Assembly (NCBI GenBank): GCA_964643895.1
Contig: CAZXUE010000001.1
Coordinates: 17,083 to 81,082, forward strand
Reading direction: 5' to 3'
Length of the DNA stretch: 64,000 bases
Source of the DNA: an uncultured Candidatus Saccharibacteria bacterium
GTDB taxonomy: Bacteria; Patescibacteriota; Saccharimonadia; Saccharimonadales; UBA7683
Position numbers and translations under genes: made by a program. Below, piece after piece: positions 4,547 to 62,127 of this stretch (its first letter is position 1; each line of letters starts with the position of its first letter). The notes beneath the pieces were generated by a model. The model did not search any database. It was not told the DNA's origin and worked only from the letters and a program-made list of their open reading frames with translations.

Positions 4547-7500
4547 TTACGCCTCCTCCTCTGTCTCGGGCGTGGCCACGAGATCGTCATCATCTTGATT
4601 ATCGTCAGTTGCAAGTGGGTCATTAGTCGCACTATCAGAGGTGCCTATGTCATCAAGTACTTCAAATTCACTAGCTACCATTTCTTCAGTCACATCCATC
4701 GGCGTTGCCTCGGCTGTTACTTCTGGTAGATTTTCAGCTTCTTCAGCAACGGTCGCTTCAAGCACTTCCTCAGCGTCAACTTCAATACCGTTTTCATTGA
4801 TTAAATCAACTCTCAGGCTTAAGCCTTGGAGCTCTTTCACAAGTACGTTAAAGCTTTCTGGAATTTTTGGTCCCACAATTGGTTCTTGCTTGATGATGCT
4901 TTCATAGGCTTTTGAACGGCCGTAGACGTCATCAGACTTCAGCGTCAGCATTTCTTGCAAAGTATTGGCAGCGCCGTAGGCTTCGAGTGCCCATACTTCC
5001 ATCTCTCCAAAACGTTGACCACCATTTTGAGCCTTACCACCAAGCGGCTGCTGGGTAACCATCGTGTATGGCCCGATACTTCGAGCATGAATTTTATCAG
5101 CGACCATGTGGTGCAGCTTGATAATGTGCATTACACCGACTGAAACACGTTCTTTAAAGTATTCACCAGTTCGGCCGTCAATTAACGACTGTTTGCCATC
5201 TTCAGGTAAACCAGCCTTCTTGAGTTCGGCCTTAATAGCATCGACTGGTACACCATTAAAGGCCGGGGTTGCAACCTTGTATCCAAGTGCACGCGCTGCC
5301 ATACCAATGTGAGTTTCAAACAGCTGACCGATGTTCATACGTGATGGCACACCAAGCGGGTTAAGCACGATATCAACAGGCGTACCGTCTTCCATAAATG
5401 GCATATCTTCTTCTGGCATAATGCGGGCGATGACACCCTTGTTACCATGCCGCCCCGCCAACTTATCACCAACCGCAATCTTACGCATTTGTGCAACAAA
5501 CACCTGAACCTGCATTAACACGCCTGCTTTAAGATCGTGACCGTTCGCGCGGCTGAAGATCTTTACGCCAACAACCTTGCCGTGCTTACCGTTACTCATA
5601 CGCTGAGAGGTATCACGAACGTCCTTGGCTTTTTCACCAAAAATTGCGCGAAGTAGACGCTCTTCCGAACTTAGCTCTTGCTCACCCTTTGGCGTAATTT
5701 TACCAACAAGGATATCGCCAGCTTTCACTTCTGCGCCAATGCGAACCACACCATTTTCATCGAGATGACGCAGACTTTCTTCAGACACATTTGGAATATC
5801 GCGAGTAACGATCTCAGGGCCAAGCTTAGTTTCTCGCACCTCAACCATGTAGTCGGTAATGTGGACAGATGTTAGTTCGTCATCTTCTACCAGCCGTCGA
5901 GAGATAACAATAGAATCTTCAAAGTTATAACCATTCCATGGCATAAATGCCACCACTAGGTCTTTACCGAGTGCGAGTTCACCATCTTCCACACTCATAC
6001 CCTCAATTATTACGTCGCCAGCCTTCACTTCGTCACCAGTGCTAACAACAACTTTTTGGTTCATGCTTGAACCTTCGTTTGTGCGAACAAAATGCTGTAG
6101 TTTGTAAGTTTTAGAGGTCTTCTCGTATTTCACGATAACCTCATTGCCATCAGCCTTCGTCACCTTACCGGTACTTTCAGCATAAATAACCTGGCCGCTA
6201 TTGGCTGCCACAATGGCTTCCATACCCGTGCCAACCACTGGGGCTTTGGTTTTAATCAGCGGAACAGCTTGTTTTTGTTGGTTTGAGGCGATGAGGGCAC
6301 GACCCACGGCATCCTTTTCGGCAAATGGAATGAGTGATGCAGTTGAACCCAAAATTTGGTTACGTGCAGCATCCATGTGAGTTACTAATTCGGCGTCAAC
6401 CTCTTCAGGCTGCAGTTTCACACGAGCCGAAACACGTTCGTCTTCAAAGGTGCCGTCAGCTGTAAGCTCAAGACCAGCTGACGCAATAACAGCCCGTTTT
6501 TCTTCATCAGCATCAAGATACACAACCTCTTTGGTAACTTTACCGTTTTTTACCACGCGGTAAGGGGTTTCAATGAATCCGTAATCATTAACACGAGCAT
6601 GCGAACCCAGGTTGAGCACCAAGCCAATGTTGGCGCCTTCAGGCGTCTCTACCGTACAAAGACGGCCATAGTGAGTAGCATGCGCATCGCGCACTTCAAA
6701 GCCAGCACGTTCGCGCGAAAGACCACCAGGACCCATCGAACTCAAACGGCGCTTGTGAGCAAGTTCTGAAAGTGGATTAGTTTGATCCATAAATTGTGAA
6801 AGCTGTGATGAAGCGAAGAACTCGCGAACCGCAGCTACAATTGGACGTGCGTTAATTAGTTGCGCTGGGGTTACCGTTTCAATTTCAGACATACTCATGC
6901 GGTCTTTGGCGTTGCGCTCCATTCGCAGGAGACCAATACGGAATTGGCGCTGTACGAGCTCGCCAACCAACTTCACCCGGCGATTTGCAAGGCTATCAAT
7001 ATCATCTGGTGCTTCTTGTGTGTTGTTCAGGCGAATAATTTCTTTCACAATGGCAACTAAATCGTCGAGGCGCATAACGCGGTTTTCGGCCACGTTCGCA
7101 ACATCGATATCAAGCCGCTTATTCATCTTGTAACGGCCAACACGGGAAAGATCAAAGCGTTTAAAGTTAAAGAATACATTTTCAATCAGGCTGCGGGCGT
7201 TATCAACAGTTGCAAGATCGCCAGGGCGGATACGGCGATACACCTCAATCAGCGCATCACTGTTGCCTTTACTTGGGTCTTTTGCCAGTGTTGCTTCAAG
7301 GTAACTGACCTCACCATTATCAACATCCTTAAAGAGCTCTTTTAGCTGCGCATTTTGCGAGTACCCGAGCGCACGAAGTAGTGTGGTAACAGGAAGCTTA
7401 CGGCGGCGGTCAATTTTTACATAAATTGCACCGTTGGCCGCTGTTTCAAACTCTAACCACGCACCACGGCCGGGGATCAGCTTGGCGCCGTATACATTCC

Positions 7501-7978
7501 GGCCACCGCTTGTCTCTGCTGTAAAGAATATGCCTGGGCTACGGATCAGCTGGCTGACAACCACGCGTTCAGCACCGTTGATCACAAATGTACCTCGAGA
7601 AGTCATCCATGGGTAATCACCAAGGTAGATCTCTTGTTCTTTAACTTCACCGGTAACTTTATTGGTAAGTTCCAGGTTTGCGTAGAGTGGAGCCTCAAAG
7701 CTCACGTTGTTTTCGCGAGCCGTCAGCTCATCCATCTTTGGATCACCAAAGTGATATTCTTTAAACCGTAGTTCAATCTTAGTACCCGTATAGTCTTCAA
7801 TCGGGTTAATTTCAGCGAAGATCTCACCGAGGCCCTCTTGTACAAACGTCTGAAACGATTTTGTTTGATGCTCAATCAAATTAGGAATAGTTAGTGCGTC
7901 GTCAGTTTTTGTAAAGTAGACTCGCTTGCCTGATGCTGTGTTGTCAGTTTTGGTTTTGCTTGTGTGCGTGGTCGCCAT
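4547..7978 (-). CDS. rpoB: DNA-directed RNA polymerase subunit beta
   Basis: 1143 aa covering the rifampicin region and the catalytic fork motifs. AAGGAG lies 9 nt upstream of the ATG. An unusual ~75-aa strongly acidic C-terminal tail (…DDNQDDDDLVATPETEEEA) is present. Confidence 0.96.
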   Translation of the reverse strand: MATTHTSKTKTDNTASGKRVYFTKTDDALTIPNLIEHQTKSFQTFVQEGLGEIFAEINPIEDYTGTKIELRFKEYHFGDPKMDELTARENNVSFEAPLYANLELTNKVTGEVKEQEIYLGDYPWMTSRGTFVINGAERVVVSQLIRSPGIFFTAETSGGRNVYGAKLIPGRGAWLEFETAANGAIYVKIDRRRKLPVTTLLRALGYSQNAQLKELFKDVDNGEVSYLEATLAKDPSKGNSDALIEVYRRIRPGDLATVDNARSLIENVFFNFKRFDLSRVGRYKMNKRLDIDVANVAENRVMRLDDLVAIVKEIIRLNNTQEAPDDIDSLANRRVKLVGELVQRQFRIGLLRMERNAKDRMSMSEIETVTPAQLINARPIVAAVREFFASSQLSQFMDQTNPLSELAHKRRLSSMGPGGLSRERAGFEVRDAHATHYGRLCTVETPEGANIGLVLNLGSHARVNDYGFIETPYRVVKNGKVTKEVVYLDADEEKRAVIASAGLELTADGTFEDERVSARVKLQPEEVDAELVTHMDAARNQILGSTASLIPFAEKDAVGRALIASNQQKQAVPLIKTKAPVVGTGMEAIVAANSGQVIYAESTGKVTKADGNEVIVKYEKTSKTYKLQHFVRTNEGSSMNQKVVVSTGDEVKAGDVIIEGMSVEDGELALGKDLVVAFMPWNGYNFEDSIVISRRLVEDDELTSVHITDYMVEVRETKLGPEIVTRDIPNVSEESLRHLDENGVVRIGAEVKAGDILVGKITPKGEQELSSEERLLRAIFGEKAKDVRDTSQRMSNGKHGKVVGVKIFSRANGHDLKAGVLMQVQVFVAQMRKIAVGDKLAGRHGNKGVIARIMPEEDMPFMEDGTPVDIVLNPLGVPSRMNIGQLFETHIGMAARALGYKVATPAFNGVPVDAIKAELKKAGLPEDGKQSLIDGRTGEYFKERVSVGVMHIIKLHHMVADKIHARSIGPYTMVTQQPLGGKAQNGGQRFGEMEVWALEAYGAANTLQEMLTLKSDDVYGRSKAYESIIKQEPIVGPKIPESFNVLVKELQGLSLRVDLINENGIEVDAEEVLEATVAEEAENLPEVTAEATPMDVTEEMVASEFEVLDDIGTSDSATNDPLATDDNQDDDDLVATPETEEEA

Positions 7979-8324
7979 AAACAGCCTGCTCCTTAGGTTA
8001 GCGACGTGATCTTATCTGATTACACTACAATAGAACCCTGGTGTTGCCAGAGTGTCTAACCCTACACGTTAATTTGTACGAGTGAGTGTGAGTCTAATCA
8101 AAACGTGATCGCGCCGTTTCTTGTTTGATTAAAATTAGTGATCTTTTAAGAAGTCACCCTAAGCCGGTTACAATCTAAAAACTAGATTGATGATTTACTA
8201 CCGTGCACCAACAGTAAATCAAGGGCTTTACTACCTCTATGCTCTCCATTCTGAACCCTCTGCAACCAATTGTCAAGCAGCTTGTGTAACTAAATCTTAG
8301 GTCGACACTGCAAGCAGTGGCAGT

Positions 8325-16556: not shown

Positions 16557-16633
16557 ACAGATGAGGTTGGAACGTGTCTATTGTACGACAGATCAGCGAT
16601 TTGTTCTACTAGAAAGTAGGCGCCAAGCGACGC

Positions 16634-17161
16634 CTACTGTAAACGGTAGTAAGCTAGTGCCGCATCGCCATAATTTCGATTGTCCACCACAACAACTCCA
16701 TTGGACGAAGGCACATCTTCCCTACCTGGGTACGATAATACCATAAGCCCTTTTGGGTTTAAATGCTCTTTTAGTGCAAAAACTGTGGATAACTGAAGAT
16801 CGTTATAGGGTGGATCGCACAAAATGATATCAAATTTTTTATCCACATTCTGCTTGCCCCATGCTCGGCAGCCGGCCTTCACAACATCCAGATTTCTAAC
16901 CCGTAGTTTCTCTGCATTATCTTTTGCAATCTGGTATGCCTTAGGGTCGCGTTCAGTCGCAAGCGCATATTCAGCGCCCCTGCTGATAGCCTCGATTGCA
17001 AGCGCGCCGCTGCCAGCAAACGCATCCCATACCTTTTTGCCGCTCAGATCACCAAGTGTATTGAAGAGCGCCGAGCGTGGCCGTTCGCCCATCGGATGCG
17101 TTCTGTAGCCGCGCGGCGCTTTTATTATTCTGCTGCCGTGTAGCCCGCCAATAATACGCAT
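16634..17161 (-). CDS. rsmD: 16S rRNA (guanine966-N2)-methyltransferase
   Basis: DAFAGSGALAIEAISRGA (AdoMet motif I) and DPPY motif IV, at a typical ~175 aa. Confidence 0.85.
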   Translation of the reverse strand: MRIIGGLHGSRIIKAPRGYRTHPMGERPRSALFNTLGDLSGKKVWDAFAGSGALAIEAISRGAEYALATERDPKAYQIAKDNAEKLRVRNLDVVKAGCRAWGKQNVDKKFDIILCDPPYNDLQLSTVFALKEHLNPKGLMVLSYPGREDVPSSNGVVVVDNRNYGDAALAYYRLQ

Positions 17162-17964
17162 CAGGCTTCGGCCTCATCAAGCGCGAGTATCCATGCTGCG
17201 GCAATGGTGCGTACAATGCGCGGCGCAAGCTCAGTACGTATCTGCCTGGCAAGCTTGACGCTCCAGCCGCGACCAAGAAAGCGTTCATACATATTTAGTT
17301 CATAAATTTCCAGTGCTTGCTCTCGTATGTAGCCCTCAAAACCGATGTTACGGATGTGCCTGATGTCAGCGTCGGTAAGGTAGTGCTTCTTAAACTTCAT
17401 AGGACGAACGGTGGAAGAAACGCCCCATTCAAAATACGCATGGCTGATAATTAAACCTTTTGCACCCCACAACTTCCAGTTTTTGCTGAGAGTCTGGCGT
17501 TTTGTATCACCTTTAATCATTACTTTTTGCTTAAAGCTGGTTCGGGTTTCAATCCCTTCACCGCGCAGTTCTATCAGCTTTTTCTCGTATGGATAATGAT
17601 GGGCGGGAGTAAGGCCGTCAACAACTGCATGCGCCAGCCACGCAGCCTCGAAAGCAGCCTTCTCTTCGTCGTTATCTTTCAAGGCTGTCTTAAGGCTCGC
17701 AAAGTGATTATTGATAATATCAAGCAATCGTGTGTCATCTGGGTCGGTCGGGTCCCAGTAGTGCCATGGCTCGTCAACGGCCGGACTTTTGCGTTTAATG
17801 CCGTCCGGCCCGTTATTGCCCTCAAAGTGTAGGATGAGCTTTGAAGATGGAAACCTCGCATCTGGTCTCGATACCTGAACAAACTTTCGTGCGACACGAT
17901 CAAACTTTTGATGCGCACCAATTAAGTTTCCGGATTTATTGTGTAACGTCGTTCCTGAGTACAT
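17161..17964 (-). CDS. zinc-dependent phospholipase C / S1-P1 nuclease-fold protein
   Basis: WHYWDPTDPDD resembles the PLC HFYDPD zinc-ligand region. AHAVVDGLTPAHHYPY resembles PLC HYLGDVNQPMHAAN. Confidence 0.5.
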   Translation of the reverse strand: MYSGTTLHNKSGNLIGAHQKFDRVARKFVQVSRPDARFPSSKLILHFEGNNGPDGIKRKSPAVDEPWHYWDPTDPDDTRLLDIINNHFASLKTALKDNDEEKAAFEAAWLAHAVVDGLTPAHHYPYEKKLIELRGEGIETRTSFKQKVMIKGDTKRQTLSKNWKLWGAKGLIISHAYFEWGVSSTVRPMKFKKHYLTDADIRHIRNIGFEGYIREQALEIYELNMYERFLGRGWSVKLARQIRTELAPRIVRTIAAAWILALDEAEA

Positions 17965-18071
17965 GTATCTAGTTTATAGTGTTTGGTTCGTTGTTGGTAG
18001 TTCTACAAATTAATAGACGAGTTTCGGCTCTGGCCATTGATCTATGAAAGGCTCGGGGTGCTCACCTGTGT

Positions 18072-20099
18072 TTAATTAAGATAGGTTAAGCTGAGAGATT
18101 TTTGTACTCTTGTGCGGAGCTCGGGATAATGCTCGAGGTGTTCTTTTTTGATGAAGGTTTCGGCAGCACTTTTTGCTTGTTTAATTAAACTCAGGTCGGT
18201 GATGTTGGCGATTTTAAGGTCTAGCGCACCGTGCTGCTTGCTGCCATAAATTGCGCCGGGACCGCGAAGCTCCAGATCCATTTCTGCCAGCTTGAAGCCG
18301 TCATTGGTCTGTTCCATCGCCCGAAGACGTTTTGAGGGTTTCTGGCTCGTGCTCGGAATAAGATAGCAGTAACCCTGATGCTCGCCACGACCCACTCGGC
18401 CCCTCAGTTGGTGCAGCTGAGCCAGGCCAAACTGATCTGCTCCTTCAATCAGCATGACCGCAGCATTCGGGATATCTATGCCAACCTCAATAACGGTTGT
18501 GCTCACTAGAATATCCAGTTCCCCCTGAGCAAACGCTTGCATCACTTTTGCCTTTTCTTCATCCTTCATCTTGCCGTGAAGCGTACCTATTCTCCGATGC
18601 TTAAACACGCCCGTCTTCAATCGTTTTACTTCCTCGTTCACGCTTTTAGCTTCAGAATTTTCAGAATCGTCAATCAACGGACACACCACAAATACCTGGC
18701 GACCAGCTTTAATTTCATCATCGATAATTTGGTAGAGTTGCGGCCGCGAATTAAGCGACCAAAGGTGAGTTTCAATCGGCAAGCGGTTTTTCGGTTTAGC
18801 TCCGATGATTGAAATATCCAGCTCGCCGTACACTGTCAATGCTAGCGAACGCGGAATTGGCGTGGCTGTCATGCTCAGAATATGCGGAATCTTTTCGCCC
18901 TTATCCACCAGTTTTTGCCGCTGTTTAACGCCAAACCGATGCTGTTCGTCAACAATAATAAAACCGAGGCGCTTAAATTGAACCGACTCTTGAAGCAAGG
19001 CGTGCGTACCAACAACTATATCAATTTTGCCATCCGCCAGCTGCTGTTTTAAAACGGTTTTTGGTTTGCCTTTCACAGCCGACGTAAGAAGCGCGATGTT
19101 GATACTGAGCGGCTCCAGCAAATCTGCGAGTGTAGCCGCATGTTGCCGAGCTAGCAGTTCAGTTGGAGCCATAAAGGCACTTTGAATACCTTGACGGGCC
19201 GCCATAAAAGCCGCCATTGCTGCTACAACCGTCTTGCCAGCTCCGACGTCACCCTCAAGGAGTCTGTTCATGGGAGTTTCTTTGTCGATATCTTGCAAAA
19301 TTTCCCAGGCAACCTTCTTCTGCTGGGCAGTTAACTCAAACGGCAAAGCTCCGATGTACTTTTTGGCAAAGGTTTGATCAAACTCAACCTGCAAAGCAAT
19401 TTCGGCCTCTACCTGCTTTTTATTGAGCTGTCCCGCCAGCACATACGCAAAAACCTCTTCAAAGCCAATTCGATCTTTCGCCTCGGCTAGTTTTGTTTGG
19501 TTCTCTGGCCAGTGCAGCTGATACGCTGCCTCTGCGTAGCTCATGAAGTCACGCTGCTTCACCAACCATTCTGGCAATGTTTCTGGAAGCTCTTGAAACA
19601 TACTTGTAACTTCAGTGAGCGCTCTTCTGATTTCCCGAGAATCCAGGCCTTTTGTTTGCGGATAGATCGGCACAATTCGCGCTGTGTTAGCAGTAAACTC
19701 CTTGGCTTCCTCAACTGATGGATTTTGCAGTACATAGCGATTGAAGCTGAAATCGTAGAGGCCTGAGAAATAGTACTCGTGATGGGGCTTAAAATACTTC
19801 TCTCGATAAGGCTGGTTAAACCAAACCACTCTTATGGCCGAGCTTGTATCACGAATGACCGCTTCCGTAATATGCATACCACGGCGCACGCGCTTTGTTT
19901 TGATTGATTCAATGCTCGCCTTTACGGTTACTGCACCAGGCTGAATGTCGGCAATCGGCAAAACCTCGGAGTAGTCGTCGTAACGGCGCGGCCAAAAGGT
20001 AAGCAAGTCAGAAATCGTTTCTACGCCAAGCTTCAACAGCTTTTTAGCAGTTTCCGGCCCCACCCCTTTAATTTTTTGTACTGAGGACTGTAAATTCAT
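18072..20099 (-). CDS. recG: ATP-dependent DNA helicase RecG
   Basis: Wedge/OB N-domain, GDVGAGKT Walker A, DEQHRFG, and helicase C motifs. Start is taken at MNLQSS…; an alternative ATG lies at 20120. Confidence 0.92.
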   Translation of the reverse strand: MNLQSSVQKIKGVGPETAKKLLKLGVETISDLLTFWPRRYDDYSEVLPIADIQPGAVTVKASIESIKTKRVRRGMHITEAVIRDTSSAIRVVWFNQPYREKYFKPHHEYYFSGLYDFSFNRYVLQNPSVEEAKEFTANTARIVPIYPQTKGLDSREIRRALTEVTSMFQELPETLPEWLVKQRDFMSYAEAAYQLHWPENQTKLAEAKDRIGFEEVFAYVLAGQLNKKQVEAEIALQVEFDQTFAKKYIGALPFELTAQQKKVAWEILQDIDKETPMNRLLEGDVGAGKTVVAAMAAFMAARQGIQSAFMAPTELLARQHAATLADLLEPLSINIALLTSAVKGKPKTVLKQQLADGKIDIVVGTHALLQESVQFKRLGFIIVDEQHRFGVKQRQKLVDKGEKIPHILSMTATPIPRSLALTVYGELDISIIGAKPKNRLPIETHLWSLNSRPQLYQIIDDEIKAGRQVFVVCPLIDDSENSEAKSVNEEVKRLKTGVFKHRRIGTLHGKMKDEEKAKVMQAFAQGELDILVSTTVIEVGIDIPNAAVMLIEGADQFGLAQLHQLRGRVGRGEHQGYCYLIPSTSQKPSKRLRAMEQTNDGFKLAEMDLELRGPGAIYGSKQHGALDLKIANITDLSLIKQAKSAAETFIKKEHLEHYPELRTRVQKSLSLTYLN

Positions 20100-51065: not shown

Positions 51066-52514
51066 CTAAATTTGGAGTAGCTTTTTGATAATCTGCTGCG
51101 TCAACCCAGGATTGGCTTGGCCTTTAGACTTCTTCATAACCTGTCCGACCAAAAAACCAATGGCTTTCATCTCGCCATTTTTCACATCTTTCGCCGCTTT
51201 GGCATTTTCAGCCAATACTTCAGCTACAATCTTCTCAATTGCGCCCTCATCCGAAACTTGTAACAGATTTTTTTCTTCAGCAAGCTTTTCGGGATCGACA
51301 CCTTCAGTGATAACACCAACCAAAAGTTCCTTTGCATTTGTTGAGCTAAGTTTGTCCTGGGCCACCATCTGCGCAAGCCCTAGGAGGCCATCTTGCGCCT
51401 GTGGAACCTGCTCCCAGCTTAAAGTCCCATCACCCACAAGCTTCAGCACTTCTCCAGTAAGCCAATTGGCAATGGTCTTTGCGCTTGATTGATCGTTCTT
51501 TGCAATACTTACTACGAAAGTGGCGATAGATGGTTCATCTATTAAAGTGTCCGCTTGCGCAACAGCAACACCGAGCTCAGCAAGCCCTGCTCGCAGTTCA
51601 TGAGGCATTTTTGGCGAACTTGCCTGAAGACTTGCAATGTATTCATCAGTAAGTACAATCGGCGGCACGTCGGGTTCCGGCATATAGCGGTAATCGTGGG
51701 CATCTTCTTTCGTACGCTGCGAGAAGGTTTTTTGTTTGGCATCATCCCAGCCACGAGTTTCTTGCACTATTGGCTCACCTTTTTCCAACTGTTCAATCTG
51801 GCGAGAAACTTCATATTCTATCGATTTCTCAACTGCTTTGAACGAGTTTAAATTTTTAGTTTCTGTTCTGGTGCCAAGCGCATCAGTTTTACTGACGGAG
51901 ACATTTACATCAAACCGCATATTACCGTGATATAAATCGACATCGCTAACGCCAGCATATTTCATTTGAAGATAGAGTGCTTTAGCGTATGCTTTTGCCT
52001 CGGCGGCGCTATGCATGTCAGGCTCCGAAACTATTTCTAGCAGCGGCGTACCTGCGCGATTGAGATCTACGAGTGAATAATCTTTGCCTGCTGGATGAGT
52101 GGATTTACCGGCGTCTTCTTCCATATGAGCGCGAGTAATGCCAATTTTTTTAGCCTCGCCATCAATTATAATCTCAACCCAGCCACCAAGGATGATCGGC
52201 TCTTCAAACTGGCTAATCTGGTACCCTTTGGGCAAATCCGGGTAAAAGTAATGTTTACGGTCAAACTTAGAAAACTTTTGTGGAGTTGTATTAAGAGCAA
52301 ATGCTGCTTTGGCCGCCAACTCAATAGCTTTTTCATTAAGAACCGGAAGTGCTCCGGGCATGCCAAAGCTCACATGCCCAACAGTAGTGTTCGGTGCTTT
52401 GCCACGAGCATCATTTGCCTCACCAGCAAACAACTTACTCTTGGTTTTCAGCTGCACATGGCACTCAATTCCAATTGTCGCTGTATATTGCTTTTTGATG
52501 TCGTCAGAAATCAT
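51066..52514 (-). CDS. gatB: Asp-tRNA(Asn)/Glu-tRNA(Gln) amidotransferase subunit B
   Basis: GatB N-terminal cradle domain and a C-terminal YqeY-like domain (…LVGQVMKKSKGQANP). Confidence 0.93.
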   Translation of the reverse strand: MISDDIKKQYTATIGIECHVQLKTKSKLFAGEANDARGKAPNTTVGHVSFGMPGALPVLNEKAIELAAKAAFALNTTPQKFSKFDRKHYFYPDLPKGYQISQFEEPIILGGWVEIIIDGEAKKIGITRAHMEEDAGKSTHPAGKDYSLVDLNRAGTPLLEIVSEPDMHSAAEAKAYAKALYLQMKYAGVSDVDLYHGNMRFDVNVSVSKTDALGTRTETKNLNSFKAVEKSIEYEVSRQIEQLEKGEPIVQETRGWDDAKQKTFSQRTKEDAHDYRYMPEPDVPPIVLTDEYIASLQASSPKMPHELRAGLAELGVAVAQADTLIDEPSIATFVVSIAKNDQSSAKTIANWLTGEVLKLVGDGTLSWEQVPQAQDGLLGLAQMVAQDKLSSTNAKELLVGVITEGVDPEKLAEEKNLLQVSDEGAIEKIVAEVLAENAKAAKDVKNGEMKAIGFLVGQVMKKSKGQANPGLTQQIIKKLLQI

Positions 52515-52906
52515 TACAAAGCCCTCAGGTCTTTTAGTGATCGTTTGAATTTTCTTATTGCTCGTTCAAATTCTGAGCGGGCTATTTCGGCACCTGGCTC
52601 GTGGACTATTCTGTTGCGTAGTTTATGCGCACGCCACACTCCATCGATATCACTCAATAACCCTGCCGCGTTATTGAGCCTTTCCCCCATGGTTGAACCG
52701 CGAATTCCGGCATGCCGAAGCGCCTGATCAACCAAACTATCAGCGGCAATGAGCGCAACGGTGGTATTATTTTCTGACTCGATTTTATCCCAGTGCTTTT
52801 GAAAGTGTTGCTTATTCAGTCGAGGTTTTGAAAAGCGTGCAACCGCCGCCAACAAAAGCAGCAAGCTCGCTGCAACTAGTACTAATACGATCATACTGCT
52901 ATCCAT
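52514..52906 (-). CDS. membrane-anchored small protein with HEPN-like Rx4H motif, embedded in gatCAB
   Basis: N-terminal TM (IVLVLVAASLLLLLAAV) and a C-terminal AHKLRNRIVHEPG. There is an 8-nt overlap with the gatA stop and a TAATG overlap with the gatB start. Confidence 0.6.
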   Translation of the reverse strand: MDSSMIVLVLVAASLLLLLAAVARFSKPRLNKQHFQKHWDKIESENNTTVALIAADSLVDQALRHAGIRGSTMGERLNNAAGLLSDIDGVWRAHKLRNRIVHEPGAEIARSEFERAIRKFKRSLKDLRAL

Positions 52907-54723: not shown

Positions 54724-55866
54724 ATGCGTCTAAAAGAAGTCGGTCTGGGGGTGGCTCGAAAGATTGTGCCTTTGTCGGCCTTAGATTCCTATGCCGCGCC
54801 AGAACAGATGTCCGAAATGAGAGCATTTCTAGCTCCGGACCATATTGAAAAACTCAAAACCGAGAGCGCAATAAAATACTGGGAAGTACTTGGAGAAGAA
54901 GAACTCATTGAAGGTATTGGAACCCTGCGGCGCATTGGTTTTGTTACTGAACAGGGCTATGCGTACTCGGCAGTAATTGGGATACCAGAAAGTCCCGAAT
55001 CAAATGTACCGATTATTGGCACGAGTGCCTGGTTTACCAGCACAGAAGGGCATAACGAGCATACTATTCGAAACATGGTACGAGCTGGTAATTACGTTTA
55101 TTTTGTCGGTGCTGAAGGAAGTTATGAACCAAACTGCGAAATAAGAACAGACGCAATCAGTCCAATCTCACTGGCTAACTCTGCTGCAGCAGTACTCAAC
55201 TTTTCATACCATACAGCCAAAGAGCTTCGCGCTGAAGGCCATGATATCGATACTGAAGATAGGATCATCATTGGAGAGTCTCGGGGTGCAATGGTCGGTA
55301 TGGGTATTGCAGCTCTCGCTGAAGAGTTTCGGCAGCGAATCATCATGGCGGATCTTGTTGCGCCCTGCCTACCGCGTTCCATGGAGCTGGGCGATATCCG
55401 CCACTTGCTTGAACAAGTTGCACAAGAGCCGATTGAAATAGTCCGCCTTATGGGGCGAATGGCCCTTGGCCGCGCACTGCACTATCCGGCAACATTCGAC
55501 CCAAGTCCATACAGCCTCAAACACCAGCTGGCTATAGGTTTTGCTCTTTTCAGTGGTGAGGCTGGCATGCTTGCTCGCTACATTCCCCGAGAAACTCTCA
55601 TGCATGTCACCACTTTCGATAGTGATTTCGCCTCAATGCGCGAAGAATGGGAGCACATATTTACTGACCACGAAGGTGTTCGCATCACACCACTACGAGG
55701 AAGTCACCTTACCCTTGCGGATCTTGAAACGTTACAGTACATTATTGGTCGCAATAAAGCTCTGCAATACTGCCTCGCCAAGAGCATACCTCTTACTCCT
55801 GAGGTCGTCTTCAATACCGCCCACATCTTAGCACCAGATCAAAAGCCGCTTCCGTACGCCGCATAA
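54724..55866 (+). CDS. alpha/beta hydrolase-fold protein
   Basis: GESRG nucleophile elbow (G-x-S-x-G) in a context consistent with an esterase/lipase fold, 380 aa. Confidence 0.55.
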   Translation: MRLKEVGLGVARKIVPLSALDSYAAPEQMSEMRAFLAPDHIEKLKTESAIKYWEVLGEEELIEGIGTLRRIGFVTEQGYAYSAVIGIPESPESNVPIIGTSAWFTSTEGHNEHTIRNMVRAGNYVYFVGAEGSYEPNCEIRTDAISPISLANSAAAVLNFSYHTAKELRAEGHDIDTEDRIIIGESRGAMVGMGIAALAEEFRQRIIMADLVAPCLPRSMELGDIRHLLEQVAQEPIEIVRLMGRMALGRALHYPATFDPSPYSLKHQLAIGFALFSGEAGMLARYIPRETLMHVTTFDSDFASMREEWEHIFTDHEGVRITPLRGSHLTLADLETLQYIIGRNKALQYCLAKSIPLTPEVVFNTAHILAPDQKPLPYAA

Positions 55867-55910: not shown

Positions 55911-56615
55911 CTAACTTGGTGTAAGTATCCAGCGGGTAACCTCTTCACGGAGACGCCGGTATTCTGCCTCCTCAAATTGCATATTAGCGATACAAAAACG
56001 ATAGCCGCTGATATTTGAACAGAACATACTGTCCTGCATGTCCCCGCAATCATGCATCATAAGGCAATCCGTTAAGCCCCCAGATCTGGTGATTCCAAAG
56101 CTATTCGCGCACTGGCCACTATCTTCTGCTCGTATACAAAATGTGAGTGGACCACCTGACTGTGAGGCAAAAACAAACTCACTATCATGAATATTATCAC
56201 TGTAGTAGATATCTTTTGAGCGGAAAATGTCACGGGAATGAAAGACGTTTTCAGATTCTTCCACCATATCAGATTCGGCAACGTTAATACCATCTACCAC
56301 AAACTCCGTGGTTATAGCGTTAATACCGTTCCATTTGGAAAGAATATCCTTTAGATCTTTTATTGGCTGTGTGGCGTAAAGACCCTTTGTAGGTGAAGCC
56401 TCGTTGTTGCGGGCGTTTTCCATTTTGACAAATCGTGAGGCACTAGCCGAAGCACTCCATGTCGTACTGCCATCGGTATAGTCCTTCACTTTATTTGGTA
56501 AGTAGATATCGAAAGTAAACTTCTTAATCGCTTGTTCAAGGCTGAGTGGGTTTTCAACACCAAAAATCTGCTTGATAATCTTATCGAGCGCAATCTTTGC
56601 TTGTTTTTTATCCAT
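55911..56615 (-). CDS. Cys-containing repeat protein, tandem paralog A (234 aa)
   Basis: ~70% identical to paralog B. It has conserved FCIR, CxNSFG, DCxMMHDCGDMQDSMFCSN and FCIANMQFEEAEY blocks. The start lies 13 nt after the paralog B stop, with no SD. Confidence 0.75.
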   Translation of the reverse strand: MDKKQAKIALDKIIKQIFGVENPLSLEQAIKKFTFDIYLPNKVKDYTDGSTTWSASASASRFVKMENARNNEASPTKGLYATQPIKDLKDILSKWNGINAITTEFVVDGINVAESDMVEESENVFHSRDIFRSKDIYYSDNIHDSEFVFASQSGGPLTFCIRAEDSGQCANSFGITRSGGLTDCLMMHDCGDMQDSMFCSNISGYRFCIANMQFEEAEYRRLREEVTRWILTPS

Positions 56616-56628
56616 ACTACAAATTGTA

Positions 56629-57333
56629 CTACGAAACCGGCGAGAGTATCCATTGAATGACTTGGTCTCTTAGCCGATAGTATTCGGCCTCTTCGAACTG
56701 CATGTTTGCAATGCAGAATTGTTTGCCATTCATGTTACTACAGAACATACTGTCTTGCATATCACCACAATCGTGCATCATTATGCAGTTAGTTAAACCA
56801 GCTGAACGAGAAACACCAAAGCTATTCGTGCACCGCACACTATCGTCCGCACGTATGCAAAATGTCACAAAGCCGCTCCGCTGTGAACCAAAAACGAATT
56901 CACTATCAAATACACTGTCACTAAATAGAATGTATTTAGACCTATCAATATTGGTCGATCTAAATACGTTCTCTGAGTTCATAACCATGTCTGATTCCGA
57001 AACATTGAGGGAATCTAATGTAAACTCTGAGGTGGTTAAATTAACGTGTTCCCATTTTGAAAGAAGGTCGGCAAGATCTTTTATAGGCTGCGTGGCATAA
57101 AGACCATCATGTTCATTACCATTATTTCGCGCATTATCAATTTTAATAAACTTAGTAGGATTCGGAGATGATGTCCATGTATCAGATCCGTCTGTACTAT
57201 CTTTGACTTTTTCAGGAAGACGAACATCGAACGCAAATTTTTTGGCGAACTCCTCAATTGAAAGTGGGTTTTCAACACCAAAAATTTGTTTAACAATTTT
57301 GTCGAGCGATTCTTTTGCTTGTTTCTTATCCAT
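56629..57333 (-). CDS. Cys-containing repeat protein, tandem paralog B (234 aa)
   Basis: Collinear with A and C. The N-terminal ~25 codons are ~80% identical to A at the DNA level. Confidence 0.75.
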   Translation of the reverse strand: MDKKQAKESLDKIVKQIFGVENPLSIEEFAKKFAFDVRLPEKVKDSTDGSDTWTSSPNPTKFIKIDNARNNGNEHDGLYATQPIKDLADLLSKWEHVNLTTSEFTLDSLNVSESDMVMNSENVFRSTNIDRSKYILFSDSVFDSEFVFGSQRSGFVTFCIRADDSVRCTNSFGVSRSAGLTNCIMMHDCGDMQDSMFCSNMNGKQFCIANMQFEEAEYYRLRDQVIQWILSPVS

Positions 57334-57345
57334 GCTAAGAGTGTA

Positions 57346-58050
57346 CTACGAAGTAGGTGAAAGTATCCATTGCACAACTTGTTGACGCAAATGTTCGTAC
57401 TCTTGCTGGGTAAACTGCATGTTCGCTATGCAATATTGACGGCCTCGCATGTTGGTACAAAACATACTGTCTTGCATGTCATAGCAATCGTGAATGAAGA
57501 ACGAATTATTGATTTTGCTGCTCCACGAAACACCAAAACTATTAGAACATTCGCCGCTATCTTCAATTCGTATGCAAAAAGCGTTGCCGCCAGATCGAGA
57601 ACCCGCTGCAATAAACTCTGAATCTTCTACGCCATCTGAAAAGAGTACATTTTTGCTGCGGCGGATATCTTGCGATCTATAAACGTTTTCGGATTTCAAG
57701 ATACCATCACTTTCTGCAACACCTATAGATTCAATTTCCCTCTCGGTAGTGGTTAAGTTAATTTCGTTCCACTGCGCCAGAAGCTCCTGCAGATTATTGA
57801 TCGGCTGTTTTTCGCGAAATCCATCGTTTTGCTCGTAGCGTGCTCGCGCATTTTCCATTTTTATAAACTTAGTTGGGTTAGTTGAGGAAGCCCAGGTTGG
57901 CTCGTTGGTTGTAGAATCATAAACCATTTGTGGCAAACGCACATCAAAAGCAAACTTTTGCATAAACTGCTCAAGACTGAGTGGGTTTTGATAGCCACAA
58001 ACCTGGCCAATAATTTTATCGAGTATTTGCTTTGCTTGATCGGCGTTCAT
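57346..58050 (-). CDS. Cys-containing repeat protein, tandem paralog C (234 aa)
   Basis: ~45-50% identical to A and B, with the same length and block order. AGAGGA SD 7 nt upstream. The start lies 12 nt after the ATPase stop. Confidence 0.75.
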   Translation of the reverse strand: MNADQAKQILDKIIGQVCGYQNPLSLEQFMQKFAFDVRLPQMVYDSTTNEPTWASSTNPTKFIKMENARARYEQNDGFREKQPINNLQELLAQWNEINLTTTEREIESIGVAESDGILKSENVYRSQDIRRSKNVLFSDGVEDSEFIAAGSRSGGNAFCIRIEDSGECSNSFGVSWSSKINNSFFIHDCYDMQDSMFCTNMRGRQYCIANMQFTQQEYEHLRQQVVQWILSPTS

Positions 58051-58062
58051 ACTATATCCTCT

Positions 58063-60075
58063 TTACTTTTTAAGTTTTGCTCTACTTGATGATTGACTGG
58101 CTAGAATATCCTGCAAATTAATAAATTCCCTTTGGCCAACAGCCGCTGTTGCCTGAGCTGGGTGTCCGCTTGAAGCTGTGCCAGAACTTGCAGACTGAGG
58201 GACAGCTTGCCGCAAGGCCTCACGCTGTTGCTGCTGTTCAACAAATCTTGCAGGTAGCTCTTGCTTTTGTTCATACGTTTTAAGTTCAGCTTGTTTGTGT
58301 ATGACTGGTGCAGCCGTAACATCAAGCGTACGAGCCTTCACACAAGGTAGAAGCTGGCCGCCAGCTGAAAGGCGCAAAAAGCACTCCCGCGGATGCAGAG
58401 TTGTGAGCATTTGTACCCGCACATCTGATTGTTTTAAGCCCTTTTCCTTCTCGCCTTGCAAGATTTCTTTGGGAATCTCGATATTAAGGTTGCCCTCTAG
58501 TGCACGAGCATCTTCCTCTGAAACTTTAAAGACGTAGTAATTGTAGACATTGGTGAAGATAGCAGCCTGAAGATTCTGCTCGATCTGACCAAAATACTGC
58601 TGCGTTAGTACCACGGAGAGACCGAACTTACGAGCCTCGGCCAAAATTTGCGCCAACGCTGGATTTTGCACCACCGAAACCTCATCAACTATTAAAATGA
58701 CCTTCTGATCGAAAGCCCGTGCCTGCGCTAGAAGAAAAATCTGCTGAATTAGCAATCCGGCAATGGTTTTTACTACCTTCTCGCCCATACTGACCTTATT
58801 GAGTGAGAAAACTGTTAAGAAATTACTGTTTACAATCTGGCCAATCGAGGTGGCGCTTTGATCGTTGCCAGCTAAACTTGGTTGCATTTGCATCTCATCG
58901 ACCAACGAGGCGATTGGCGAGATTGCCTCGTTATAAAATTTAGTACGAATTTCATTAAAATCAGTGCCGAAGAATCGAACAATATTTTCTGGTACGTAAC
59001 CTTGAACATGCGAAAGCAGCTGATTACGGTATTCGATATCTGTTACAAAGCGCTTCAGCGAATCGAGCGACATAACCTGCGCAGTCATCAAAACATACAG
59101 TGAGAACCTTAAGACTCGCTCTAGTTTTGGATTGTGCTGGTCACTAAGCAGCGATTTAAAGAGCGTGCCGGTTAGTTCAGTCGCGGCGGAGATATCGGTT
59201 CCTGTGCCGCCAAAAAGTTCGGTTCCCTCATTTTGGCCTTTAAAGTTGATAACCGTACTCTCTTGAATTCCCTTTAAATCATCTTCCAGCGAGGCGTGTG
59301 GATCAATAACGATTACTCGGTAATTTTGCTTCAAGCCATGAGAATTGGCCAATTTATCCACAAGTAGACTAATCAGTTTGGATTTACCGCTGCCACTAGC
59401 ACCTATGATGAAAGAATGCTTTTCAAAATCGTACGAATTCAGGCCGAGATAGTAATTTTTCGGCAAATATGGAAAAGTATCAACTTCAAAAACGGCACCA
59501 AGGTTTTCGCTCTGCATAATATGCAGTGACTTTTGAATATCGAGATACTTAGTAACCTTTTTGCGCAGATAGCGAGTGTTGGCCGTGAAATCAATTGCCA
59601 GCATAAATGAAGGGAACGCGGCGGCAACTTTATGGTTGATTGTCCAGTTTTTGCCACCATCTTGAAAGTAAAGGTAGCTATGGGTAATGGCTTTTTCAAA
59701 ATTAATTCGACGGCATTTCACTACCAGAAACTGGAGGTCTTTAGCTTTTTTAACCTTATACTTCTCCTTCAAATCAAGAAGATCACCGCCAGCCTTCACC
59801 ACAACCAGCCGCTCTTTGCCAGCCGAGGATGCCGAGGGCAGACCGATCACTTCCGGTTTTACGGGCCGCAAAACTCCTACCTCGATATTATTTGAAAGCG
59901 AGCCAAGGTCGCGGTCACTGAGCACAAAATAACGAATGGTGTTTTCCTCAACCTTAACGATAACCTGAAATTCTTTCAGAACGCCGACATATTGGGAAAA
60001 CACATTATAGAGACGGTTCCAGTCCTCTCTGGTAACCTCGTCTCTCAGCAGGAAAAATTCAAAACAATGTTTCAT
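58063..60075 (-). CDS. FtsK/HerA/VirB4-superfamily P-loop ATPase (AAA_10/DUF87-like)
   Basis: [19 protein letters not shown] (Walker A preceded by a conserved His), VILIVDEVS (Walker B) and [14 protein letters not shown] (the R-K-x-G…TQ motif shared by HerA, VirB4 and FtsK). No TM segments. The ~220-aa N-terminal domain is of unknown type. Confidence 0.8.
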
Positions 60076-60101: not shown

Positions 60102-60110
60102 ATTATAACA
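60102..60110 (-). promoter_or_regulatory. extended -10 promoter (TGTTATAAT) for the ATPase-paralog operon
   Basis: The reverse complement of attataaca gives TGnTATAAT, ~27 nt upstream of the ATPase ATG. A TGACA-N9-TGTCA inverted repeat at 60126-60144 overlaps the -35 region. Confidence 0.5.
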
Positions 60111-60153
60111 TTAACTCTTAACAGATGACAGTGCAAAATTGTCAGCCCTTGAA

Positions 60154-62127
60154 TCACATCTTTTCTTTGATTGCAGTAATTTGGTCACGGAGCTCTGCTG
60201 CCTCTTCAAAGCGGAGGTTGGCACTGGCTAGATCCATCTGGCTCTCCAGTTCGGTGATAAGGTGTTTGTATTCGTCTTTTGGAATTTTGTTCAGGTTGAG
60301 ACTAGGTTTCTTTTCTTTTTCTGGTGCGCCGATGATTGCTCGAAGACCTTCGTCTACCACCTTATCCACCCCTGTTGGTGTAATGCCGTGTTTCGCATTG
60401 TGCGCCTCTTGAATGCTGCGCCGGCGTTTGGTTTCATCAATAGTGTACTGCATTGATTTCGTAATGGTATCGCCGTACATAATCACATGACCTTCCTCGT
60501 GTCGGGCAGCGCGGCCAACCGTTTGCACTAACGCCTGCGAACTCCTTAAGAATCCTTCTTTGTCGGCATCCATAATCGCCACTAAGCTTACTTCTGGCAG
60601 ATCTAAGCCTTCACGCAGCAAGTTAATACCCACGAGCACATCGTAGATGCCGAGCCGGAGATCGCGCAAAATGTCAGTTCGATCAAGTGTATCGACATCA
60701 CTATGTAGATAGGCGGTTTTGATATCGAGCTCTTGTAGATATTCGGTTAAATCTTCGGCCATTCGTTTTGTAAGTGTTGTAACGAGCACTCGTTGCCCTT
60801 TTTGAGTGGTTGCACGAATTTCTTTAATTAAATCGTCGATTTGATTTTTAGTTGGGCGAACTTCTATTGGCGGATCAAGCAAGCCAGTTGGACGAATAAC
60901 CTGTTCGGCCGGCTTACCACTTCGCTGCAACTCGTATTCGCCAGGTGTGGCAGAAACGTAAATGACTTGGTTAATGTGATTTTGGAATTCTTCGAACTTG
61001 AGCGGCCTGTTATCAAGTGCTGAAGGCAAACGAAAACCGTGTTCCACCAACACCTCTTTTCTGGCGCGATCGCCGTTATACATACCTCGTACTTGTGGCA
61101 AGCTCATATGGCTTTCATCAACAAGCATTAAAAAATCATCAGGAAAATAATCGAGCAAGGTGGCGGGTTGTTCGCCCGGTTCGCGATTTGTGAGGTATCG
61201 AGAATAGTTCTCAATACCTTTCACAAAACCTGTCTCCTCAAGCATTTCTAGATCAAACTTAGTTCGTTGGCCCAGACGCTGAGCTTCCAGCAGCTTGTTT
61301 TGTGATTCAAATTCATTCAGCCGGTTCTCAAATTCATGACGAATTTTACCAATAGCAACCTTCAGTTTATCGCTGGGCGTAACGTAGTGTGACCCTGGGA
61401 AAATGCGTACCTCCTGTGGCTCTTGAATAATCTCGCCTGTCAACGGATTGATCTCAGTAATTCGATCAACCTCATCCCCAAAAAACTCAATTCTATAAGC
61501 TGATTCCCCGCCTGCTGGAAACACATCAACCACATCACCACGCACCCGAAAGGTTGAACGGTGAAAGTCAATATCGTTGCGTGTATATTGAATATCTGTC
61601 AGATGACGTAAGAATTTGTCTTGCCGACGTTTTTCGCCAACTTTAATAGTTATCGACATCTCCCCGTAATCATCGCGTGATCCAATACCGTAAATACAGC
61701 TGACTGAGGCCACAATAATACAATCACGACCGGTTAACAGTGCCGAAGTGGCCGCATGGCGCAGCCGGTCAATCTCTTCGTTGATCTTAGAATCTTTTTC
61801 GATGTAGGTATCGCTCGAAGGCATATAGGCTTCCGGCTGATAATAATCGAAATAACTAACGAAATAGTGGACTTCATTCTCCGGAAAGAACTGCCGAAAC
61901 TCGCTATACAGCTGTGCAGCTAGAGTTTTATTGTGGCTCAGCACCAAAGTTGGCTTTTGCACAGCTTGAATAATATTAGCCATCGTAAAGGTCTTACCAG
62001 AGCCAGTTACCCCAAGCAGCGTCTGCTCTTTTTGTCCGCCATTCAGACCATCCACCAACTGCTTAATAGCCATTGGCTGATCACCAGTAGGTTGGTATTT
62101 GGTATTGAGCTTAAACGGCCTACTCAT
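60154..62127 (-). CDS. uvrB: excinuclease ABC subunit B
   Basis: [10 protein letters not shown] Walker A, the beta-hairpin, helicase motifs and a C-terminal UVR domain. Confidence 0.95.

Follow-up and report, generated by a model that had tools for sequence, protein, structure and literature searches.

Tandem genes for predicted beta-helix proteins behind a soluble HerA/FtsK/VirD4-superfamily ATPase in a Saccharibacteria genome

The stretch of DNA analysed here, referred to as the window, comprises 64,000 nucleotides of contig CAZXUE010000001.1 from the assembly of an uncultured Candidatus Saccharibacteria bacterium (GCA_964643895.1). On its minus strand lie three adjacent open reading frames (ORFs), paralogs C (57346-58050), B (56629-57333) and A (55911-56615), which occupy the first, second and third positions behind the gene for a 670-residue P-loop ATPase (58063-60075). 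Each encodes exactly 234 aa, as reported in an initial annotation made from the sequence alone. To judge from their sequences, the three proteins belong to an unannotated, constrained family of real genes, and their common fold is predicted to be a narrow beta-helix. The explanation that best accommodates the data, although it is held tentatively and at somewhat less than even confidence, is that A, B and C are functional paralogs that serve as dedicated partner subunits of the upstream enzyme, a soluble member of the HerA/FtsK/VirD4 superfamily.

The link to the ATPase, already proposed in the initial annotation, is borne out by comparison with other genomes. A scan of one genome per species identified 376 loci with a family member, and the best 80 of these provide the linkage counts that follow. 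A homologous ATPase gene is located immediately upstream and on the same strand in 77 of the 80 loci, the other three being cut by contig ends. The distance from the ATPase stop codon to the partner start ranges from -8 to +22 nt in 74 loci, with the two genes overlapping in 35 of these, and clustering of the neighbouring ORFs reveals the ATPase to be the only neighbour conserved in all loci. Such coupling is of the kind typical of genes for subunits of one complex. In addition, uvrB is found in 30 loci and gatA, gatB and gatC in 29-32, defining a conserved uvrB-ATPase-partner-gatCAB synteny. No relatives were found in plasmids, phages or IMG/VR viral contigs, and a mobile-element origin was set aside for this reason; the pair appears to be chromosomal and vertically inherited.

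Most loci (68) contain a single partner gene. Two copies are present in 7-8 loci, three only in locus L008 (L numbers denote the related loci) and four in L039, where they form a tandem array (5472-8299). This array and the two copies each in L056 and L061 are independent expansions, and in L056 one copy (5184-5888) resides upstream of the ATPase gene in addition to the one downstream. In four loci from gut metagenome-assembled genomes (MAGs) labelled “uncultured Clostridia” (L079, L080, L085 and L087, of which three are MGBC isolates), the beta-helix gene is intact but the ATPase sequence is distributed over 2-3 ORFs, possibly as a result of pseudogenisation, frameshifts or assembly error. 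The Clostridia labels themselves may be wrong, because nearly all other top-ranked loci with the pair are from Saccharibacteria MAGs.

Within the window, the ATPase gene and paralogs C, B and A are read as one operon, since the spacers between them are short (12, 12 and 13 nt for ATPase-C, C-B and B-A, respectively), a candidate promoter follows uvrB, and no convincing minus-strand terminator is present between any of the four genes. The candidate promoter (60102-60131, minus strand) consists of CTGTCA, 18 nt and an extended -10 element, TG-TATAAT, giving 10 of 12 consensus matches, and is positioned in the 78-nt spacer between uvrB (60154-62127) and the ATPase gene, the first of the operon. 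The assignment is by consensus match only, and promoter-like sites in the region are not more numerous than expected by chance. There is an AGAGGA Shine-Dalgarno sequence in the spacer between the ATPase stop codon and paralog C; none is present in the C-B and B-A spacers, which resemble each other.

The mechanism proposed for the pair is one in which the beta-helix protein, itself without a recognisable catalytic domain, would dock on the ATPase hexamer and act there as an adaptor, a regulator or a substrate-like rod. Parallels would be the docking of NurA, Sir2 and DUF4297 proteins on HerA (PMC11291478) and of adaptor proteins on the coupling proteins of type IV secretion systems (T4SS) (PMC12857230). 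Where additional paralogs are present, these could supply alternative partner subunits to the same motor. Physical binding between the two products is something we infer, as are the surface used and the substrate of the machine.

The ATPase displays a Walker A motif, GASGSGKS, at residues 225-232 and a Walker B motif at D464-E465; among its homologs G225, S227, D464 and E465 are invariant, and G228, G230 and K231 nearly so. In Pfam it matches TrwB_AAD_bind (1.7e-10, 40.8 bits against a cut-off of 20.5), a domain that it shares with the VirD4/TrwB type IV coupling proteins (T4CPs), and DUF87 (6.5e-9, 36.6 bits against a cut-off of 23.2), the latter over only 46 residues around Walker A. The Prokaryotic Genome Annotation Pipeline (PGAP) labels it a T4SS DNA-binding-domain protein. 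Among the NCBIfam models, TraD/SXT_TraD reach about 27 bits where the cut-offs are 366-521, VirD4 is likewise weak (cut-offs above 360), and the HerA models reach 14-16 bits against cut-offs of 800-850. Many weak P-loop matches are seen in all, to CedD, TraD, EccC (EccCb) and HerA in NCBIfam and to HerA and mad8 (5.5e-13) in PADLOC. A profile search of the PDB with 19 ATPase homologs places HerA chains first (8wiv at 3e-8, then 8xau and 8ziq), followed by EccC, TrwB and archaeal HerA.

Unlike VirD4/TrwB T4CPs, the ATPase has no N-terminal transmembrane (TM) anchor: the highest 19-residue Kyte-Doolittle mean, 1.57 at residue 434, falls inside the core, and the N-terminal 200 residues contain no candidate segment. 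Nor does it have virB4, T4SS or relaxase neighbours among the large ORFs of the window, and conservation around the pair in the 80 loci does not extend to any T4SS gene. In being encoded away from virB4 it resembles most of the orphan T4CP homologues of Patescibacteria, of which 5,713 were counted in 2,918 genomes and only 148 near virB4 (Quinonero-Coronel et al., PMC12102498). The same 2025 survey suggested that these homologues may be exapted for other functions and left open their role away from T4SS (PMC12102498). The C-terminal ~90 residues of the window ATPase (58063-58330) comprise a variable, low-complexity linker rich in Gln, Ser and Ala, followed by a terminal peptide that is conserved among homologs. 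This peptide could be a tethered docking motif.

The paralogs themselves are 67% (A/B), 57% (B/C) and 51% (A/C) identical at the protein level, near the earlier estimates of about 70% and 45-50%. The proportion of synonymous differences (pS) between pairs is 0.76-0.89 and therefore saturated, while the nonsynonymous proportion (pN) is only 0.22-0.35, which argues for long purifying selection on all three genes; with dS saturated there is no dN/dS value, and selection is judged by pN against pS only. The initial annotation had attributed the similar 5′ ends of A and B to recent duplication or gene conversion. The similarity is as described, with 79% DNA identity over the first 75 nt compared with 64% over the whole gene, and other A/B stretches reach 71-73%. 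Its proposed recent origin does not stand, because synonymous sites are saturated in all pairs and because several genomes have in common the clade of additional copies described below. The shared 5′ sequence is thus more likely to reflect amino-acid conservation than recent exchange.

In a neighbour-joining tree built from the copies found in the window and in 22 related loci (23 genomes in all), paralog C clusters with those at the first position in L008-L012 and with the genes that L013 and L019 carry as single copies. Paralog B joins the copies located second in seven other genomes, forming an “extra-copy” clade, and paralog A joins the third copy of L008, nested within that clade as a later duplication common only to the window and L008. 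The tree points to one old duplication and one younger, neither of them recent. L008, from a Candidatus Saccharimonadales MAG, is also the nearest relative in the genome collection (94% identity), and its three genes are annotated as hypothetical.

A repeat is evident in the C-terminal part of each paralog, where a Ser or Cys appears at six-residue intervals between ~108 and 207, with +3 register shifts near 159 and near 198. The Ser+Cys autocorrelation summed over lags 6, 12 and 18 gives a z of ~9, and for each of the three paralogs not one of 20,000 shuffles matches it. In a family alignment of 53 diverse sequences, down to 26% identity, the autocorrelation of the Ser/Cys profile is 0.64, 0.66, 0.55 and 0.43 at lags 6, 12, 18 and 24, respectively, and that of hydrophobicity is 0.44 at lag 12. 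Because of the peaks at lags 6, 12, 18 and 24, the base period is taken to be 6 and the coil length 12, with a repeat unit that is a hexad, S/C-x-x-[IV]-x-x, present twice per coil. The periodicity of 10-13 residues noted previously is therefore real as a repeat and far above chance, but the figure fits only the length of the 12-residue coil.

The fold predicted for this region is consistent with the repeat. An AlphaFold model of paralog B built from the 53-sequence alignment has a mean predicted local distance difference test score (pLDDT) of 78.4 and a predicted template modelling score (pTM) of 0.80; it replaced a first, poor model (pLDDT 64) from a shallow alignment in which all members were more than 54% identical. 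Helices at residues 3-18 and 26-34 are followed by a small sheet and more helices up to residue 100, short strands recur every 12 residues from ~135 to 187, and a final helix spans 215-229. The predicted architecture thus consists of an N-terminal alpha/beta domain (~1-100), a rigid, acidic, narrow beta-helix (~108-212) with about eight or nine coils of 12 residues each, and a C-terminal amphipathic helix (215-229); net charge in the beta-helix region is -6 to -12 among the three paralogs. The beta-solenoid suggested in the initial annotation accordingly gains support from both the AlphaFold prediction and the period-6 Ser/Cys pattern, whereas the description of the N-terminal ~60 residues as helical applies to the first two helices and not to the short strands that follow. 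This region may be the recognition module for the ATPase that the initial annotation envisaged. The apparent lack of a TM segment or signal peptide in A, B and C is confirmed, with a maximum 19-residue Kyte-Doolittle mean of no more than 0.74.

The closest structural likeness is to the antifreeze protein of the beetle Tenebrio molitor (TmAFP, PDB 1ezg), a narrow beta-helix of 12-residue coils with a TCTxSxxCxxAx repeat in which every third residue (Cys, Ser, Cys, Ala) points inward. A, B and C have the same predicted coil length and, like TmAFP, a small Cys or Ser every six residues, and S/C-x-x-[IV] maps onto the TmAFP arrangement. By analogy with the antifreeze fold, the core of the helix may be formed by a Ser/Cys ladder alternating with an Ile/Val ladder. 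However, there is no sequence relationship, the ladder of A, B and C is mostly Ser rather than disulfide-bonded Cys, and the Thr-Cys-Thr ice-binding face and secretion of TmAFP have no counterpart in proteins without a TCT motif or signal peptide. The paralogs also possess an extra N-terminal domain and a C-terminal helix, and are prokaryotic, predicted to be cytoplasmic and coupled to an ATPase. The likeness is almost certainly a convergence of fold rather than homology, and an antifreeze function was dismissed, the resemblance being one of fold only.

No annotated family accounts for these proteins. The initial annotation had allowed for a clear match to a known enzyme family; profile searches of Pfam, NCBIfam, PHROGs, PADLOC and the PDB gave no significant result. 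Only noise was returned by a sequence-profile search of the PDB with the family profile, and no nuclease or NADase domain was detected with Pfam, NCBIfam, PADLOC or the PDB, where traces such as NUC (0.07) and Sir2 chains (0.5) are at noise level. Hexapeptide-repeat, bactofilin and pentapeptide profiles of Pfam did not match even at E values up to 1, and a Foldseek search with the model yielded no match in the PDB and nothing below E = 1 in BFVD. Relatives are nonetheless abundant: a database clustered at 90% identity contains 417 homologs (E down to 1e-153) from Saccharibacteria, “Nomurabacteria” and other Patescibacteria, all of them unnamed or “hypothetical”, and 1,416 clusters at 50% identity are recovered at E ≤0.001.

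The family extends beyond Saccharibacteria. A 27%-identical member overlaps by 4 nt the 3′ end of a gene for a 576-aa homologous ATPase on a 449-kb contig (L088/L089, 6274-8732), whose neighbouring genes look unlike those of Candidate Phyla Radiation (CPR) genomes (an AraC regulator, a zinc alcohol dehydrogenase, a periplasmic binding protein and a dehydroquinate (DHQ) synthase); in this locus an AAA_14/DUF4143 ATPase gene follows the pair. In one Patescibacteria genome the ATPase ahead of the partner gene is split into two ORFs. A search of 50%-identity representatives also uncovered many proteins of 500-555 aa with two complete modules apiece. Where a source is named, they are labelled as hypothetical proteins of Candidatus Micrarchaeota. 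Their contigs carry archaeal ribosomal and transcription genes, and the genes occur in arrays, such as one of five on a contig of 13.6 kb and another of four on a 9-kb contig. The largest array, on a 629-kb contig of Micrarchaeia (L094, 408-18742), comprises ten consecutive genes for two-module proteins of 522-554 aa, separated by small gaps or overlapping, and ends at a convergent gene (16571-18742) for a 723-aa ATPase that is homologous to that of the window (phmmer 2.2e-51, residues 207-643).

Several observations weigh against a dedicated partnership. Five of the six Micrarchaeota loci examined have no ATPase gene within 8-10 kb, so that archaeal linkage is seen only once, and in a Dojkabacteria genome no ATPase gene lies within 8 kb of the beta-helix gene. 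The beta-helix protein may therefore be able to work without the ATPase. Furthermore, a block of polar residues that is strongly conserved close to the helix's C-terminal cap (MFC-x-N...Y-C-I-A-N-M-Q), in which N210 is invariant and R161, Q212, E217 and Y218 are nearly so, could constitute a catalytic or ligand site and not simply a docking surface.

If the partnership holds, the pair looks like an undescribed two-part machine. It is conceivable, though rather doubtful, that this machine belongs to both ultra-small symbiont radiations, with 1-4 partner genes in CPR/Patescibacteria and up to ten fused two-module genes in the DPANN Micrarchaeota, and serves a host-dependent lifestyle, for example by handling DNA or protein acquired from the host cell or passed into it; a role as T4SS coupling protein, HerA repair helicase or defence system would then not apply. 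The module also occurs in Micrarchaeota, where its paralogs are greatly expanded in number, and may therefore represent biology that CPR and DPANN share or have exchanged. At least one large clade of orphan T4CP-like ATPases has a near-obligate, tightly coupled partner, whose family is unannotated and whose predicted fold is unusual, and what was an “orphan ATPase” becomes a defined two-component module that is testable in cultivable Saccharibacteria. No description of the beta-helix partner family was found in the literature searched, and with more than 1,400 clusters at 50% identity lacking annotation, the family merits a Pfam/InterPro entry.

It is also possible, although unlikely, that the ATPase recognises the beta-helix proteins as cargo or as building blocks and feeds them to an export or assembly apparatus, the paralog arrays then being substrate repertoires. 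This would parallel T4SS coupling proteins with their effectors and, in type VII secretion systems (T7SS), EccC with its tandem Esx/PE-PPE substrates; as in the EccC/EssC systems, an FtsK-like ATPase is tied to tandem paralogs, and signal peptides are absent from the family as they are from T4 and T7 substrates. The T4CP-type Pfam domain of the ATPase, its weak matches to TraD and to the EccC (EccCb) P-loop, and its PGAP name are in keeping with such a role, as are copy arrays of 3-4 genes in bacteria and 10 in an archaeon. Against this reading, a membrane anchor is absent from the ATPase, neither virB4 nor any other T4SS gene figures among the window's large ORFs, the genes conserved beside the pair do not include one for a membrane channel, and the survey cited above places only 148 of 5,713 Patescibacteria T4CP homologues near virB4 (PMC12102498). 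The window locus also differs from T7SS in lacking WXG100/helical-hairpin substrates and membrane components, and its ATPase has one P-loop domain, not three. Finally, the family is at least 45% identical across the 80 best-matching loci, unlike typical effector repertoires.

Also in favour of export is that Saccharibacteria carry an essential T4SS, whose cluster in Southlakia epibionticum is without a recognisable coupling protein (Wang et al., PMC10633639). According to the transposon-sequencing (Tn-seq) and annotation tables for that organism, the pair is absent from its uvrB-gatC interval. Its T4CP-like protein SEML1_0293 is 921 aa long and non-essential, and the gene is followed by a GNAT gene rather than a beta-helix gene. 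Because the pair is missing and SEML1_0293 differs in length and neighbour, no phenotype can be transferred from Southlakia to the window locus.

Less probable again is that the pair forms a HerA-type system for phage defence or conflict, with the beta-helix protein as its sensor or effector. Defence-type HerA works in complex with the product of a neighbouring gene (PMC11291478), and HerA-NurA, Sir2-HerA and DUF4297-HerA modules resemble the window pair in placing a hexameric HerA/FtsK-superfamily ATPase beside one dedicated partner (PMC11291478). The closest solved relatives of the ATPase are the HerA chains listed above, the PADLOC mad8 and HerA models match it, and paralog expansion is common in conflict systems. 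At one locus (L004, 10807-11826) the pair is directly followed by a gene with an EndoU_bacteria toxin domain (209 aa) and a 126-aa gene, which look like a toxin-immunity pair. On the other hand, A, B and C have neither a PADLOC match nor a recognisable nuclease, NADase or protease domain, the ATPase gene is here the first of the two, and the NCBIfam HerA scores are far from their cut-offs. The setting is likewise unlike that of a variable defence island: the pair holds a fixed position between uvrB and gatCAB in ~30 loci, amid housekeeping genes, is under purifying selection, and was not found in plasmids or phages.

Slightly more doubtful than a defence role is the idea that the proteins are cytoskeletal or scaffold beta-helices that self-assemble by stacking end to end in the manner of bactofilins, with the ATPase assembling or remodelling the polymer. 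The modelled beta-helix core between terminal helices would suit this, as would the situation in Micrarchaeota, in which modules are fused in pairs, gene dosage is very high and many copies are dispersed without an ATPase. However, neither Bactofilin nor any other repeat family of Pfam is matched, polymerisation finds no support in the present data, and the helix would be closed off at one end by the globular domain at the N-terminus.

The metal-binding or disulfide-stabilised protein suggested in the initial annotation is very improbable and was dropped as the main explanation, being largely excluded by the interchange of Cys with Ser. It had been based on five to six conserved Cys, and each paralog does contain six; in the 53-member alignment, however, only C198 (96%), within a D-S-M-F-C block, and C207 (100%), within F-C-I-A-N-M-Q, are kept. 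At positions 159, 168, 183 and 189, Cys is found in 43-66% of members and Ser in 36-57%; the usual replacement is Ser at 183 and 189, and Gly, Ser or a hydrophobic residue at 159 and 168. Paralog C provides an example, with Ser at 183 in place of the Cys of A and B, a substitution that had been recognised at the outset. With most Cys replaceable by Ser and just two of them conserved, the proteins are unlikely to hold a metal cluster; a Cys-cluster metal protein would be expected to have at least 3-4 invariant Cys/His ligands, and a mononuclear Cys4 site would need more than the two conserved Cys unless a dimer shared it. Disulfides would be unexpected in proteins predicted to be cytoplasmic. 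C198 and C207 are conserved among the bacterial members and the archaeal modules are far richer in Cys, but in the archaeal relatives Ala takes the place of C207 (R-Y-A-I-G-N); the residues conserved in the wider family include C198 and N210. The ladder positions fit the data better as small core residues than as metal ligands.

The surroundings of the operon are those of a core chromosomal region, as indicated by rpoB/rpoC, recG, dnaE and genes for a penicillin-binding protein (PBP), a Clp ATPase, a peptidase M1 and a PilB-type (T2SSE) ATPase elsewhere in the window. Immediately upstream is uvrB, and downstream, past a convergent ORF, are gatC, gatA and gatB. The convergent ORF, which directly follows paralog A (54724-55866, plus strand), encodes 380 aa without a Pfam match and recurs in 14 related loci. 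A 343-aa ORF in the same convergent position in L001 matches alpha/beta-hydrolase families and is an unconfirmed counterpart. Between gatA and gatB is a 130-aa ORF (52514-52906, minus strand) with a hydrophobic N-terminus; ORFs in this interval matched no Pfam family in L001-L003, and the position is kept in 23 related loci.

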